IMG/VR virus record: IMGVR_UViG_2563366827_000005
Direction: 5' to 3' (one strand)
Origin: a virus
Lineage: Duplodnaviria; Heunggongvirae; Uroviricota; Caudoviricetes
Length of the DNA: 33,965 bases
The notes under the pieces: generated by a model
What the model was told of the DNA's origin: nothing
The model's input: the letters and a program-made list of their open reading frames with translations, nothing else
Database searches by the model: none
Program-made: the position numbers and the translations under genes
Shown here: one piece after another, positions 1 to 33,965 of the stretch
Numbering within the stretch: position 1 is the stretch's first letter
Layout: each line of letters starts with the position of its first letter

Positions 1-1362
1 ATGTTTAAACCGGAACTCCTTTCCCCGGCGGGAACGCTGAAAAATATGCGTTACGCTTTCGCTTATGGCGCAGATGCTGTTTATGCGGGCCAGCCGCGTT
101 ATTCCCTGCGTGTGCGCAACAACGAATTCAACCACGAAAATCTTCAGCTCGGCATCAATGAAGCCCACGCGCTGGGGAAAAAGTTTTATGTCGTGGTCAA
201 CATTGCACCGCACAACGCCAAGCTGAAAACCTTTATCCGTGACCTGAAACCGGTGGTGGAAATGGGGCCGGATGCGCTGATTATGTCCGATCCAGGGCTG
301 ATTATGCTGGTGCGTGAGCACTTCCCTGAAATGCCGATCCACCTTTCGGTGCAGGCTAACGCCGTGAACTGGGCGACGGTGAAATTCTGGCAGCAAATGG
401 GCCTGACCCGCGTGATCCTCTCTCGCGAGCTGTCGCTGGAAGAGATTGAAGAGATCCGCAATCAGGTGCCGGATATGGAGATCGAGATCTTCGTTCACGG
501 CGCGCTGTGCATGGCCTACTCCGGTCGCTGCCTGCTCTCTGGCTATATCAACAAGCGCGACCCGAACCAGGGCACCTGCACCAACGCCTGCCGCTGGGAG
601 TACAACGTCCAGGAAGGGAAAGAAGATGATGTTGGCAACATCGTACACAAGTACGAGCCGATTCCGGTGCAAAATGTTGAGCCGACGCTGGGTATCGGCG
701 CACCAACCGACAAAGTGTTTATGATCGAAGAGGCCCAGCGTCCGGGCGAGTATATGACCGCGTTTGAAGATGAGCACGGCACTTACATCATGAACTCGAA
801 AGATCTGCGCGCCATCGCCCATGTAGAACGCCTGACCAAAATGGGCGTGCATTCGCTGAAAATCGAAGGTCGTACCAAATCTTTCTACTATTGTGCACGC
901 ACCGCACAGGTTTACCGCAAAGCTATCGATGACGCCGCTGCGGGAAAACCGTTCGATACCAGCCTGCTGGAAACTCTGGAAGGTCTGGCGCATCGTGGCT
1001 ATACCGAAGGTTTCCTGCGTCGTCATACTCACGACGATTATCAGAACTACGAATACGGTTATTCAGTTTCTGACCGCCAGCAGTTTGTTGGTGAGTTTAC
1101 CGGTGAGCGCAAGGGGGACCTCGCGGCGGTAGCGGTGAAAAATAAATTCTCCGTTGGCGACAGCCTTGAGCTGATGACGCCGCAAGGCAACATTAATTTT
1201 ACCCTTGAGCACATGGAAAACGCCAAAGGCGAAGCTATGCCGATAGCACCAGGCGATGGTTATACTGTGTGGCTCCCGGTCCCGCAGGATCTTGAGCTCA
1301 ATTACGCGCTGCTGATGCGTAATTTCTCCGGGGAAACCACGCGTAATCCCCACGGTAAGTGA
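1..1362 (+). CDS. yegQ: U32-family peptidase-like protein YegQ (tRNA hydroxylation-associated), host gene, complete
   Basis: 453-aa ORF starting MFKPELLSPAGTLKNMRYAFAYGADAVYAGQ, recognised as enterobacterial YegQ; GC-rich host-like composition; lies outside the att repeat. Confidence 0.85.
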   Translation: MFKPELLSPAGTLKNMRYAFAYGADAVYAGQPRYSLRVRNNEFNHENLQLGINEAHALGKKFYVVVNIAPHNAKLKTFIRDLKPVVEMGPDALIMSDPGLIMLVREHFPEMPIHLSVQANAVNWATVKFWQQMGLTRVILSRELSLEEIEEIRNQVPDMEIEIFVHGALCMAYSGRCLLSGYINKRDPNQGTCTNACRWEYNVQEGKEDDVGNIVHKYEPIPVQNVEPTLGIGAPTDKVFMIEEAQRPGEYMTAFEDEHGTYIMNSKDLRAIAHVERLTKMGVHSLKIEGRTKSFYYCARTAQVYRKAIDDAAAGKPFDTSLLETLEGLAHRGYTEGFLRRHTHDDYQNYEYGYSVSDRQQFVGEFTGERKGDLAAVAVKNKFSVGDSLELMTPQGNINFTLEHMENAKGEAMPIAPGDGYTVWLPVPQDLELNYALLMRNFSGETTRNPHGK

Positions 1363-1506
1363 TTAATTTCGATTATTTTTCCCGGATGGAAAATTCTTAG
1401 AAACCGATCACATACAGCTGTATTTATTAAGGTTATCATCCGTTTCGCTGAAAAACATAACCCATAAAATGCTAGCTGTACCAGGAACCACCTCCTTAGC
1501 CTGTGT

Positions 1507-1534
1507 AATCTCCCTTACACGGGCTTATTTTTTA
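1507..1534. other. Prophage attachment site core (attR, ogr-proximal); 28-bp perfect direct repeat of 33463..33490
   Basis: aatctcccttacacgggcttatttttta occurs identically at both prophage ends; its reverse complement matches the P2 att core AAAAAATAAGCCCGTGTAAGGGAGATT as I recall it. Confidence 0.8.
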
Positions 1535-1603
1535 CGCGTAATTCAATGAAATAAAAGGATTTATTTCTGGTCACGTCCACACATTGACCACATCGACAAA
1601 AAA

Positions 1604-1621
1604 GCCCCTCGACTGAGGGGC
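1604..1621. terminator. Hairpin gcccctc-gact-gaggggc with T-rich flanks on both strands; likely bidirectional terminator downstream of ogr and of yegQ
   Basis: Perfect 7-bp stem and 4-nt loop; followed by ctttctgttt on + strand and by TTTTTTG on - strand; sits 14 bp beyond the ogr stop. Confidence 0.6.
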
Positions 1622-1634
1622 TTTCTGTTTGTAA

Positions 1635-10899: not shown

Positions 10900-12897
10900 T
10901 TATACCTGTGCCACGTTATACCATGTCCCGTTAATGTATTTCTGCACCGGTCTGTAATATACGCCACCAATGTTATCGGCAGAGTTTGAGCCGGTATCCT
11001 GAATAATAATGCCGGAATATACACACCCGGACGGTGCCTGATGTGTCCATGTCATGCCATTGTTCGCAGGTTTGTATGTGGCAGCACCACCAAGCCGGAT
11101 ATCCCGGACATAGCGGGAATCAAAGTTACCGTAATCTGTGGGATTAACACGACCCGTAATATTTATGGTTTTATTACTTTGAATGCTACCGGAGACAAAG
11201 CGCATAACATGAACGTTATTAGCATAAACATCCAGATTACCGTCACCATTTTGTTTAAAGCCCGTGTCATTATCACCCAAAACAATTGAGTTACCGCCAA
11301 GAACACTGGATGTTCCGATGCCCAGTGCACCATTCAATTGACCTCCAGATAATGACAACGCCCCAACATCAGCAGCAGTCGGTTTAATGTGCGAACTGTA
11401 AATTACATATACAGTTCCATCTGTAAGACCTGTTGGTTTATTCGCTGTATAAGTTGGTGATGTATGAATCGTTACGCTGGCGTTACTGGTATAATCCCAC
11501 TGAATATTAACACCTGTGGCGTAATTACCTATTTCAACATAAACATCATAGGTATCACCGGATGTATTCACCCATGCAAAATTAGTAAATCCAACCGATG
11601 TCCGTCGCCATAACGCACCAGTAAGACCTTTTGGATTTCCATTTCCCGCACGAAGAACAAGTTCAGATATACCAGCCTGCATAGGGGAGTTAACATTATA
11701 TCCAGCACCACCAATCAGACTTATGTAAACCACGGAACTGGCCTGTGGCATGGTTACAGTTGCCAGCCTGAACCATCCTGTACCACCACTAAAAGACATG
11801 GTTGTTGAATTTGTTGCTCCAATATTGCGCAGGAATAATCTTTTATCAGGAATATCCGCGCCATTTTGATCTTTCTGAAGACGTTTTTCAGCATTGTCAT
11901 AGGCAGACTTCACCGCTTTTGGTGTTGCAGCCAGCGTTTCAGAATCGCTGTTGATGGCACTATTGAGCTGAACAAGACCTTTCCGCGCCGTGGTGGCGTC
12001 CTGTGCAGTGTATTTTCCGTTAGCAAGGTCATACGCTGTCTTAACCGCCTTTGGCGTTGCCGCAAGCGTTTCAGAATCGCTGTTGGTGGCGCTACTGAGC
12101 TGGACAAGACCTTTTCGCGCTGTGGTGGCGTCCTGTGCAGTGTATTTCCCATTAGCAAGGTCATATGCTGCCTTTACCGCTTTTGGTGTTGCGGCGAGCG
12201 TTTCAGACGTGCTGTTGGTGGCGCTACTGAGCTGGACAAGGCCTTTTCGCGCTGTGGTGGCATCCTGCGCAGTGTATTTCCCGTTAGCAAGATCATACGC
12301 GGCCTTTACCGCTTTCGGCGTTGCGGCCAGTGTTTCAGACATGCTGTTGGTCGCATTGCTTAACTGAGTAAAACCTTTTGCGGTCAGCGAGGCGTCCGGG
12401 TGACGTCGTGACTGTCCATGCTCTGCAATTTTGTCATCAACGTAATCCTGCGTCGCCATCACCGTTGTGGTGTCAATGGTCAGCGCCACTGAGGCCACAC
12501 TGCTGACGATGATGACCATGCGACAGGTCTGCGAACGCCCTGAGCCTTCGGCAAGAGCTGGCTTATAACTTTCGGCCATGTTCGCCACGGCAATTAATGT
12601 TCCCGCATCATCGTACAGGCCAAGCTCACGCATCCAGAAACCGCCCACCTCCGGCGGAATAACCAGCTCTGCAATAATATAATTACTGTTTCGTTTGTCC
12701 TGGCTGATTTTGTTCAGCGCATGTCGCCAGACTTCATGGATAAGCCCGGTCTGTCCGGCATCCGGGACAGGCAATTTACCACCTCCATCCCCGACGGCCA
12801 TCGTGGTAATGTTGACCTTCCGCCCTCCCGGCGCGGTTGCCGCTGCCAGCTTTGCTGCACCGGCAGTGGTGATAACGGTTCTGAATTTTGTGCTCAT
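10900..12897 (-). CDS. H: Tail fiber protein H
   Basis: 665 aa; N-terminus P2 gpH-like, central tandem 44-aa repeats, C-terminal receptor-binding region of lower GC. Confidence 0.85.
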   Translation of the reverse strand: MSTKFRTVITTAGAAKLAAATAPGGRKVNITTMAVGDGGGKLPVPDAGQTGLIHEVWRHALNKISQDKRNSNYIIAELVIPPEVGGFWMRELGLYDDAGTLIAVANMAESYKPALAEGSGRSQTCRMVIIVSSVASVALTIDTTTVMATQDYVDDKIAEHGQSRRHPDASLTAKGFTQLSNATNSMSETLAATPKAVKAAYDLANGKYTAQDATTARKGLVQLSSATNSTSETLAATPKAVKAAYDLANGKYTAQDATTARKGLVQLSSATNSDSETLAATPKAVKTAYDLANGKYTAQDATTARKGLVQLNSAINSDSETLAATPKAVKSAYDNAEKRLQKDQNGADIPDKRLFLRNIGATNSTTMSFSGGTGWFRLATVTMPQASSVVYISLIGGAGYNVNSPMQAGISELVLRAGNGNPKGLTGALWRRTSVGFTNFAWVNTSGDTYDVYVEIGNYATGVNIQWDYTSNASVTIHTSPTYTANKPTGLTDGTVYVIYSSHIKPTAADVGALSLSGGQLNGALGIGTSSVLGGNSIVLGDNDTGFKQNGDGNLDVYANNVHVMRFVSGSIQSNKTINITGRVNPTDYGNFDSRYVRDIRLGGAATYKPANNGMTWTHQAPSGCVYSGIIIQDTGSNSADNIGGVYYRPVQKYINGTWYNVAQV
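11893..12378. repeat. Tandem direct repeat, about 3.7 copies of a 132-bp unit, inside tail fiber gene H
   Basis: Near-identical 132-bp units visible in the DNA (compare 11941.. with 12073..); they encode KG[LF][VT]QLSxATNSxSETLAATPKAVKAAYDLANGKYTAQDATTAR four times in frame. Confidence 0.85.
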
Positions 12898-23536: not shown

Positions 23537-24570
23537 TGAGCAAGAAAGAAGGGAAAACACCGCAGCCAGCGGCAAAAACAATCACCGCCAGCGCCCCGAA
23601 AATGGAAGCATTCACCTTTGGCGAGCCGGTGCCGGTACTCGACCGCCGTGACATTCTGGATTACGTCGAATGCATCAGTAACGGCAGATGGTATGAGCCG
23701 CCGGTCAGCTTTACCGGTCTGGCAAAAAGCCTGCGTGCTGCCGTGCATCACAGCTCACCGATTTACGTCAAACGCAATATTCTGGCCTCAACATTTATCC
23801 CGCATCCGTGGCTTTCGCAACAGGATTTCAGCCGCTTTGTGCTGGATTTTCTGGTGTTCGGTAATGCGTTTCTGGAAAAGCGTTACAGCACCACCGGTAA
23901 GGTCATCAGACTGGAAACCTCACCGGCAAAATATACCCGCCGTGGTGTGGAAGAGGATGTTTACTGGTGGGTGCCGTCCTTCAACGAGCCGACACCTTTC
24001 ACGCCCGGTTCCGTGTTTCACCTGCTGGAGCCGGATATTAATCAGGAGCTGTACGGCCTGCCGGAATACCTCAGCGCCCTTAACTCTGCCTGGCTGAATG
24101 AGTCGGCCACGCTGTTCCGCCGCAAGTATTACGAAAACGGCGCACATGCCGGATACATCATGTACATCACCGATGCCGTGCAGGATCGCAACGATATCGA
24201 AATGCTTCGCGAAAACATGGTGAAGTCGAAAGGCCGCAACAACTTTAAAAATCTGTTTCTCTATGCCCCACAAGGGAAAGCCGACGGCATTAAAATTATC
24301 CCGCTCAGTGAAGTGGCGACGAAGGACGATTTTTTTAATATCAAAAAAGCCAGTGCCGCAGACCTGCTGGACGCGCACCGCATCCCCTTTCAGTTGATGG
24401 GCGGCAAGCCGGAGAACGTCGGGTCGCTGGGTGATATTGAGAAAGTGGCAAAGGTCTTTGTCCGCAATGAGCTTATCCCGTTACAGGACAGGATCCGAGA
24501 GATAAACGGCTGGCTCGGTCAGGAGGTCATCCGCTTTAAAAACTACTCACTGGACACTGACAACGACTGA
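23536..24570 (+). CDS. Q: Portal protein Q
   Basis: 344 aa, P2 gpQ length; start overlaps the P stop (TGATG). Confidence 0.9.
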   Translation: MSKKEGKTPQPAAKTITASAPKMEAFTFGEPVPVLDRRDILDYVECISNGRWYEPPVSFTGLAKSLRAAVHHSSPIYVKRNILASTFIPHPWLSQQDFSRFVLDFLVFGNAFLEKRYSTTGKVIRLETSPAKYTRRGVEEDVYWWVPSFNEPTPFTPGSVFHLLEPDINQELYGLPEYLSALNSAWLNESATLFRRKYYENGAHAGYIMYITDAVQDRNDIEMLRENMVKSKGRNNFKNLFLYAPQGKADGIKIIPLSEVATKDDFFNIKKASAADLLDAHRIPFQLMGGKPENVGSLGDIEKVAKVFVRNELIPLQDRIREINGWLGQEVIRFKNYSLDTDND

Positions 24571-32369: not shown

Positions 32370-33383
32370 ATGGCAATCAAAAAACTCGATGATGGTCGAT
32401 ATGAAGTGGACATCCGCCCTACTGGACGTAACGGAAAACGCATCCGTAGGAAGTTTGATAAGAAAAGCGAAGCTGTCGCTTTCGAAAAATACACGTTGTA
32501 CAACCACCACAATAAAGAATGGCTATCAAAACCAACAGACAAACGACGTCTGTCGGAACTGACACAGATCTGGTGGGATTTAAAGGGTAAACACGAAGAG
32601 CATGGGAAATCTAATCTTGGAAAAATTGAAATCTTCACAAAAATAACGAATGACCCATGCGCATTTCAAATCACGAAATCCCTTATCAGCCAGTACTGCG
32701 CCACCCGAAGAAGTCAGGGTATTAAACCTTCGAGTATCAATCGTGATTTAACATGTATTAGCGGCATGTTTACAGCCCTGATTGAAGCGGAGTTATTCTT
32801 TGGTGAGCACCCTATCAGAGGGACAAAGAGGCTTAAGGAGGAAAAACCAGAAACAGGCTATCTCACACAGGAAGAAATTGCCTTACTGCTTGCAGCACTT
32901 GACGGCGACAATAAAAAGATTGCGATTCTTTGCCTGAGTACAGGAGCACGTTGGGGAGAAGCAGCTCGTTTGAAAGCAGAAAATATCATCCATAACCGCG
33001 TCACATTTGTTAAAACGAAAACAAACAAACCACGCACCGTCCCGATCTCAGAGGCTGTTGCCAAAATGATCGCGGATAACAAACGAGGTTTTTTATTCCC
33101 TGATGCTGATTACCCTCGCTTCAGACGAACAATGAAAGCAATAAAACCGGATTTGCCAACGGGGCAAGCCACACATGCACTAAGGCACAGCTTTGCCACT
33201 CATTTCATGATTAATGGAGGAAGTATTATCACGCTACAACGGATACTAGGTCACACGCGGATTGAGCAAACTATGGTTTACGCTCATTTTGCGCCAGAGT
33301 ACCTTCAGGACGCCATTTCTCTTAATCCGCTAAGAGGTGGTACTGAGGCCGAGAGTGTCCACACAGTGTCCACAGTAGAGTAA
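32370..33383 (+). CDS. int: Tyrosine integrase
   Basis: 337 aa; C-terminal catalytic region ...HALRHSFATHFMINGGSIITLQRILGHTRIEQTMVYAHF (R...HxxR...Y); P2 Int length; adjacent to the att core. Confidence 0.9.
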   Translation: MAIKKLDDGRYEVDIRPTGRNGKRIRRKFDKKSEAVAFEKYTLYNHHNKEWLSKPTDKRRLSELTQIWWDLKGKHEEHGKSNLGKIEIFTKITNDPCAFQITKSLISQYCATRRSQGIKPSSINRDLTCISGMFTALIEAELFFGEHPIRGTKRLKEEKPETGYLTQEEIALLLAALDGDNKKIAILCLSTGARWGEAARLKAENIIHNRVTFVKTKTNKPRTVPISEAVAKMIADNKRGFLFPDADYPRFRRTMKAIKPDLPTGQATHALRHSFATHFMINGGSIITLQRILGHTRIEQTMVYAHFAPEYLQDAISLNPLRGGTEAESVHTVSTVE

Positions 33384-33462
33384 CGTTTAAGGGCTTTCAG
33401 TGGTAATTTATGCCGCTCAAACCCGCATTGTACCGTTGAAAGCCCCTACTGGTGACACCCTA

Positions 33463-33490
33463 AATCTCCCTTACACGGGCTTATTTTTTA
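33463..33490. other. Prophage attachment site core (attL, int-proximal); direct repeat of 1507..1534
   Basis: Identical 28-bp sequence 80 bp beyond the int stop. Confidence 0.8.
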
Positions 33491-33647
33491 TGCATAAGCC
33501 CTATCCCTGGTCACCGTCTTCCATTGACCACATCGATAGAATCTCCCTTCATAGCACGATGCCTTTCACGTAACGGCATCGTGCTCGCACAGGTTCCGGC
33601 TAAGCACAACCAGAACGCGCATGTTTGACGCTTACCAAAAAATATTC

Positions 33648-33965
33648 TCACTCTCCACATTTGAATGTCAGACGAGCGACGCCATGTAATCCTGCACCTT
33701 CTGTCTTCAGGTCAACTATCTGCATTTTTTTGCCCTGAGTAACACAGAAATGGGCTGCATCATTTTTTACTATATTTTCTGCACCAGATATTCTGCCCCT
33801 GGCTAAAGAAGCTTCGGCTTCGGTGTAGTATTGGTTATCGAGTTTACGCTGAATATTACTTTTATATGCAAGACCAAATTTACCGATACTTGTCTCATCA
33901 TTATGCACAGCACAACCAGACATAATAAAAATACTAATTAATGATATAGCAGCTATCTTTTTCAT
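33648..33965 (-). CDS. yegR: Small lipoprotein, host gene (YegR-like by length and neighbourhood)
   Basis: 105 aa with signal peptide and lipobox (IFIMSGC); outside the att repeat; symbol assigned from synteny with yegQ and length only. Confidence 0.5.
   Translation of the reverse strand: MKKIAAISLISIFIMSGCAVHNDETSIGKFGLAYKSNIQRKLDNQYYTEAEASLARGRISGAENIVKNDAAHFCVTQGKKMQIVDLKTEGAGLHGVARLTFKCGE

Follow-up and report, generated by a model that had tools for sequence, protein, structure and literature searches.

An eroded P2-like P arm as the probable origin of the host flank at the cyaR attachment site of Escherichia coli

Attachment sites at RNA genes and the cyaR locus

Prophage remnants at the attachment sites of RNA genes have been described before, including one at the cyaR site of Escherichia coli K-12. 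At the 3' ends of tRNA, tmRNA and sRNA genes, where such remnants can be stacked, a conserved terminator target is regenerated upon integration, and older att copies are moved distally and decay; the locus analyzed here does not differ from these cases in principle. The closest described case is the cryptic P2 remnant of K-12, which consists of ogrK and a truncated gene D. Like the sequence described below, it is a P2-like leftover at the cyaR core that kept an attR-type junction and lost int and the remainder of the prophage. It sits between cyaR and the same host flank that is the subject of this study, the order in K-12 being cyaR core, full P arm, ogrK, D', partial core and then the flank. 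Unlike the flank, the K-12 remnant is recent and strain-limited, has a length of ~630 nt, is >95% P2-like and contains a complete P arm and ogr, whereas the flank is far older and species-wide, comprises ~50 nt and has a shortened IHF region and one degenerate repeat. The P arm of the P2 attP shares with the flank its order and orientation to the core, the sequence CTGGTCAC and, without any difference, the outer repeat with its 3' neighbour; in the flank, however, the inner repeat is lost, the spacer measures 16 instead of 33 nt, and neither the ogr terminator nor ogr follows.

The window, i.e. the whole stretch of 33,965 nt that was analyzed (IMG/VR record IMGVR_UViG_2563366827_000005), contains yegQ/trhP (1-1362, plus strand) at its left end, followed by the sRNA gene cyaR (ryeE; 1445-1533, plus strand), to which the Rfam covariance model CyaR_RyeE matches at full length (1445-1530, 100.7 bits with a gathering score of 47). 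A P2-like prophage spans the interval between two copies of a 27-nt direct repeat (1507-1533 and 33463-33489, both plus strand), with ogr adjoining the left copy and int (32370-33383) the right one. The repeat, AATCTCCCTTACACGGGCTTATTTTTT, is identical to the annotated attP core of P2. Since the annotated P2 genome has the P arm on the ogr side of attP and the P' arm on the int side, the left junction is attR (B'-O-P) and the right junction attL (P'-O-B), in agreement with the original prediction, and the extra att-like sequence lies in the B arm. The P arm of the resident prophage (1534-1596, plus strand) comprises an IHF-site region (1534-1566) and an Int arm-binding site (1569-1596); the latter is identical to positions 24293-24320 of the P2 record AF063097, annotated as 'Int, P arm' (GGTCACGTCCACACATTGACCACATCGA), and the IHF site is annotated there at 24324-24357. 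The intrinsic terminator of the ogr/F operon (1601-1624, minus strand) is likewise identical to the annotated P2 terminator. The P' arm carries two Int-binding repeats TGTCCACA within the 3' end of int (33349-33375, plus strand; P2 annotation 'Int, P' arm'), and the pattern TGWCCACA is matched there at 33356 and 33367. In its interior (11890-12379) the prophage contains a 132-nt unit in three tandem copies that are 81-100% identical, and a shorter in-register repeat family is found in the same region (11989-12280).

The 27-nt core of P2 is the 3' half of the cyaR terminator together with its U-tract; the copy at attR completes cyaR and the copy at attL is an orphan copy of the cyaR 3' end. In a set of 80 Enterobacteriaceae loci gathered via YegQ, the core 27-mer (with up to four changes) is present ~145 nt after yegQ in 78 loci, and the terminator stem covaries between genera. 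This conservation and covariation of the core as the cyaR terminator led us to reject the idea that a phage had donated the perfect core. The ryeE/cyaR gene has already been named as a phage target (PMC3603311). P2-like P arms follow directly after the cyaR core in several loci of other genera, and E. albertii carries a truncated P2-like remnant at this place. The locus is reused because its core is the conserved cyaR terminator, which is rebuilt on the gene-proximal side by each integration; the original prediction had considered the extra flank sequence relevant to this reuse, an explanation we reject in favor of the regenerated terminator.

In six Enterobacter loci (L007, L066, L072, L076, L080 and L082, from ~4533 onward) an element of ~0.6 kb that is not P2-like follows directly after the cyaR core, beginning with gccttctct...caggcaataagctcgtcgattt; thus, elements of more than one kind use the cyaR 3' end as their target. 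Other P2-like prophages with differing P' sequences are found at the attL junctions of six IMG/VR contigs (L138, L154, L162, L167, L184 and L192), where the join to the host is made at CCCTTACACGGG or TACACGGG; such hybrid cores delimit the point of strand exchange.

Arm homology in the host flank

The host flank at 33507-33536 (ctggtcaccgtcttccattgaccacatcga) matches the phage P arm at 1567-1596 (ctggtcacgtccacacattgaccacatcga) in 24 of 30 positions without gaps and in 26 when two 1-nt gaps are allowed, and the 15-mer cattgaccacatcga is shared exactly. Local alignment of the flank (33490-33647) with the P arm (1534-1640) gave a score of 22. Dinucleotide shuffles of the same alignment scored 8.2±1.3 with a maximum of 19 (0 of 20,000 reached 22), and random segments of the window scored 14 or less. 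Chance is excluded as the source of this match, and the predicted arm homology is therefore real. The similarity also runs on past the 27-nt core (AATCT...TTTTTTACGCGTAA and ...ATGCATAA are identical at 33 of 35 positions), and the matching part of the flank covers the annotated Int P-arm binding site of P2.

Next to the core, the flank begins with a core-proximal fossil P arm (33490-33506, plus strand), reading ATGCATAA where the phage has ACGCGTAA, in which the IHF-site region is down to 9 nt. It is followed by a fossil Int arm-binding region (33507-33536, plus strand) that contains CTGGTCAC, a degenerate repeat 1 (CGTCTTC) and an intact repeat 2 (CATTGACCACATCGA). The arm consensus published for P2-type phages is tgTGGaCa (PMC3448106). 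One consensus repeat is intact in the flank (TGACCACA at 33525-33532), and the other is degenerate, with CGTCTTCC in place of the phage CGTCCACA (5/8). The flank thus has one direct repeat fitting the consensus, where a functional attP arm has two. The spacer between core and CTGGTCAC is 17 nt shorter than in the phage (16 and 33 nt, respectively), and most of the annotated IHF region is deleted, so that an IHF site with phage-like spacing is not present; a plain IHF consensus scan missed even the annotated phage site.

In a multiple alignment the flank is collinear with ten P arms (P2, the resident prophage and elements of other genera). The collinearity holds for the P2-like P arms at cyaR in six other loci and for the truncated remnant of E. 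albertii. The shared order is core, xGCxTAA, IHF region, CNGGTCAC, repeat 1 and repeat 2 (CATTGACCACATCGAT). A rare E. coli haplotype retains 12 more nt in the shortened IHF region, including GGATT.

The flank is present in one copy in 5418 of 5426 complete E. coli genomes (93-100% identity), unoccupied sites included. An 'empty site' construct of 910 nt, in which the left side through the core was joined to the right side after the core, is contiguous in 4565 of these 5426 genomes, in some with 100% identity. Thus, the B arm of the unoccupied site normally consists of this flank, and we take the site to be the preferred P2 attachment site locI. The flank is not a feature of the present lysogen, and there is nothing special to this strain: it is an ordinary, neatly readable scar. 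The observation that was to speak against a scar was an unchanged flank in prophage-free strains without similarity to P2 attP arms; the flank is indeed unchanged in such strains, but it does resemble the P2 arm.

The exact 18-mer of the arm is present in 88 of 89 loci that were retrieved by the hairpin pattern alone. Between 33513 and 33544 no common polymorphism is found within E. coli, and neighbouring positions are polymorphic. This invariant block could hint at constraint; given the number of variable sites and the multiple windows, the gap is not significant. Directly after the core (33490-33497, corresponding to 1534-1541), E. coli is dimorphic, with the palindrome ATGCAT in the majority and ACGCGT, the P-arm version, in the others. 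The phage sequence ACGCGTAA is also found in unoccupied sites, with 100% identity over 100 nt, and could be an excision footprint or the ancestral state.

A search for free phages with a P arm or ogr terminator like the flank or the hairpin was made with INPHARED in distant mode and with two IMG/VR pattern scans. No free phage with the flank version (CCGTCTTCCATTGACCACATCGATAGAATC) was found in these collections; all matches are attL junctions that include host DNA. GenBank entries ON470606 and AY639599 and ~120 IMG/VR contigs (L104-L221) are records filed as phage that include the E. coli flank, often with yegR.

The 804-nt island of E. coli

Alignment of an empty E. coli locus with that of Escherichia sp. 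E1V33 revealed an insertion of 804 nt in E. coli (L087, 3934-4737), flanked exactly by the cyaR core and by the ancestral spacer that precedes yegS. The order within this island is P-arm remnant, hairpins, yegR, AT-rich DNA, P'-like remnant and a decayed second core. At the distal end, outside the window and just upstream of yegS, a core-like 27-mer matches the core in 18 of 27 positions, a level reached by 1 of 63,548 background 27-mers. It is preceded by P'-proximal-like sequence at the same offset as in attP, and the 57-nt alignment of this region to the attL of the window has 39 matches and a score of 19 (shuffles 7.7±1.3, 0 of 20,000 reaching it). The island is therefore bounded by core copies, the proximal one perfect and the distal one decayed, where the ancestral cyaR-yegS spacer resumes, and att-arm homology in the correct order and orientation lies beside the core on both the P and the P' side.

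In at least 46 of the 80 Enterobacteriaceae loci, including Escherichia sp. E1V33, yegS starts 75-150 nt after the core. Neither yegR nor the arm-like block nor the hairpin is present in any of the 80 loci, in Escherichia sp. E1V33 or in E. albertii, so the island is absent from the orthologous site of related taxa, the sample for dating comprising two non-coli Escherichia loci. Among the E. coli genomes of the collection no island-free junction was found. Together with the collinearity with P2-like P arms, this absence elsewhere bears out the earlier suggestion of a scar left by a previous P2-like integration. Recognizably phage-like sequence amounts to no more than ~50 nt at one end of the island and ~30 nt at the other; we found no remains of phage genes within it, and neither the island nor YegR matches real phages.

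The flank contains a 10-nt copy of the core start, AATCTCCCTT, at 33540-33549 (plus strand), 77 nt after the start of the core, as had been noted. In ~68 kb (both strands) three core 10-mers recur elsewhere, and the chance that one lands in the flank is roughly p = 0.005-0.01. The copy is polymorphic and reads AATCCTCCTT or AATCCCCCTT in many E. coli lineages, K-12 included. Over 33540-33566 the match to the 27-nt core amounts to 15 of 27 positions, of which 10 are contiguous, a level seen about once per 1000 positions. A core match over most of the 27 nt, as expected for a secondary attB, is not found here, and we do not uphold the proposal of a tandem secondary att site. In the P-arm alignment the 10-mer lies beneath the left stem of the phage ogr terminator. 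It may have arisen by chance, as a decayed second core from stacked integrations, or as a decayed terminator stem, and is weak evidence compared with the other att-like elements.

The perfect inverted repeat agcacgatgcc/ggcatcgtgct was found as described, with arms at 33553-33563 and 33575-33585 forming an 11-bp stem. The hairpin (33553-33585; minus strand, the strand of yegR) lies 63 nt downstream of the yegR stop codon and has a free energy of -21.3 kcal/mol on the plus strand (z = -5.1) and -24.6 on the minus strand (z = -5.8). A smaller second stem-loop (33593-33616, minus strand), also downstream of yegR, appears in the minus-strand fold of 33510-33650. No T-run follows the hairpin on either strand and a terminator scan found no sites, so the combination of G+C-rich stem and T-run that characterizes intrinsic terminators is not present. 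There is no Rfam match in 33300-33965, and INPHARED and IMG/VR pattern scans did not find the hairpin in free phages. In other E. coli strains, substitutions in the stem are never compensated. Our best guess for the hairpin is a stem-loop in the 3' region of yegR, with a phage terminator relic as the less likely origin.

The yegR gene (33648-33965, minus strand), taken from the open reading frame list and annotated in E. coli genomes, encodes a lipoprotein of 105 amino acids, has 38% G+C and is essentially limited to E. coli and Shigella. Homologues with 76-81% identity lie in another chromosomal context with a second lipoprotein gene next to them; those elsewhere are chromosomal and not phage-borne. 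The homology to them ends 3 nt past the stop codon, which speaks against the flank as part of the donor context of yegR. In some E. coli (L002, 889-1060; also L003, L093 and L094), 172 extra nt are present between yegR and the hairpins, at 33637/33638. Its translation on the yegR strand aligns with the N-terminal part (residues 4-38) of a 110-aa lipoprotein ORF found after the yegR homologue in other bacteria (47% identity over 36 residues, E = 3e-6). The piece is missing from the window and is the only segment with a match to the second gene of the donor. From this translated match, the 172-nt piece looks like the decayed second gene of a two-gene yegR cassette, and the part of the flank nearest to yegR would thus stem from that cassette. 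The cassette may have come as phage cargo or have been inserted later. In E. coli FDAARGOS_1077 (L222, 410-430) most of yegR is deleted between two copies of CACAACCAGA; this strain keeps the arm-like flank and the hairpin, and its distal fossil core differs (AATTACCCATGC...).

Origin of the flank and alternative readings

Taken together, the region 33490-33536, perhaps up to ~33550, is with a probability of about 0.75 the eroded P arm of an ancient P2-like prophage that lies in a fixed island. The order of events would be as follows. An ancestor of E. coli would have been lysogenized by a P2-like phage at the 3' end of cyaR, and most of this prophage would later have been deleted. On the cyaR side an attR-type junction would have been left, consisting of the core, the shortened IHF region and one degenerate and one intact Int repeat; on the far side, an attL-type junction would have been left, with ~30 nt of P'-proximal sequence and the displaced, decayed original core. 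The 804-nt island with yegR and the hairpins between both junctions would then have become fixed. Because the island has attR-type and attL-type ends and no island-free junction was found, we consider it a fossil P2-like prophage that was fixed before E. coli diversified. The site would have remained usable because integration is expected to restore, on the gene-proximal side, the complete cyaR terminator that serves as the core. Later P2-like phages, that of the window included, would insert between cyaR and the fossil and push the latter outward, which would be why the resident attL abuts the old P arm. The remnant is probably inert for Int recombination now, since it has lost one repeat and differs from a phage arm in its spacing and IHF region.

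Such inertness is not the only way to read the intact repeat. The N-terminal domain of P2 Int might still bind TGTGGTCA in the B arm, with the effect of more integration at locI or of an attL that acts as a pseudo-attP and alters the frequency or fidelity of excision. One repeat is identical to the outer P-arm repeat of P2 and fits tgTGGaCa (PMC3448106), and the 18-mer hardly varies in E. coli, in contrast to flanking positions. P2 arms, however, have two direct repeats and the second one of the flank is degenerate; the spacer to the core is shortened, most of the IHF-site region is gone, and the polymorphism-free stretch is statistically not unusual. We regard a functional arm as quite unlikely. 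Cloned attB fragments of core size have been reported to be sufficient for recombination by P2 Int, and K-12, in which a perfect core lies beside a complete P arm, has been reported not to use the P2 site at cyaR. If K-12 indeed does not use this site, an arm beside the core would not help integration. A related and equally doubtful idea is that the unoccupied site is a decayed attR that kept an arm which Int can bind, and that the site was opened again for integration when the old P arm lost its IHF region and one repeat. In that case the attL of every P2 lysogen at this site would carry arm sites to either side and be a pseudo-attP, and it would be explained why a complete remnant, as reportedly in K-12, blocks the site while an eroded one is the preferred target.

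With respect to the direction of transfer, the phage might have gained its P arm from host DNA by imprecise excision at the cyaR locus, and shared sequence adjoining the core is the product expected of aberrant excision. This is highly improbable: the P-arm layout occurs in P2-like elements at cyaR on chromosomes without the flank, the same repeat consensus is present in the P' arm and published for P2-type phages generally (PMC3448106), and the host flank, found in E. coli alone, is the more degenerate copy. The island itself could be a composite of several events, since yegR homologues elsewhere are chromosomal. In one such arrangement the 10-mer would be a real junction: the stretch from the 10-mer to the distal decayed core would be an older yegR element, and that from the cyaR core to the 10-mer a later P2-like phage, cut to ~50 nt. 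The three core-like copies share their orientation, K-12 and the window prove that stacking takes place at the cyaR locus, and the p-value of the 10-mer is low (roughly 0.005-0.01). Against this, the 10-mer has the variant readings in many lineages given above, matches the core at a level that recurs about once per 1000 positions, and fits equally well under the left stem of the phage terminator. We therefore hold a composite island with this junction to be unlikely.

On the preferred reading of an eroded P arm, a long-studied P2 attachment site would have to be re-read: the CyaR terminator serves as its 27-bp core, and the host arm beside it would be derived from a phage. The literature that was searched contains no report of the B arm as a P-arm fossil or of yegR inside a fossil prophage. 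The locus would be a clean example of an RNA-gene attachment site that is rebuilt and used repeatedly, with older scars displaced outward, and the orphan lipoprotein gene yegR would be placed within a fossil prophage. At this site, software that sets prophage limits from att repeats or arm motifs can extend beyond the true attL, and boundaries are commonly drawn too far out. At the deletion junction of the K-12 remnant (L004, 1334-1354), gene D and the partial core meet at TACACGGGC. In the window, where gene D is intact (2093-2150), the sequence at this point is GAACTCCGCAACACCCCG; since 10 of 18 positions there are like the core, the deletion in K-12 may have used a pseudo-core.
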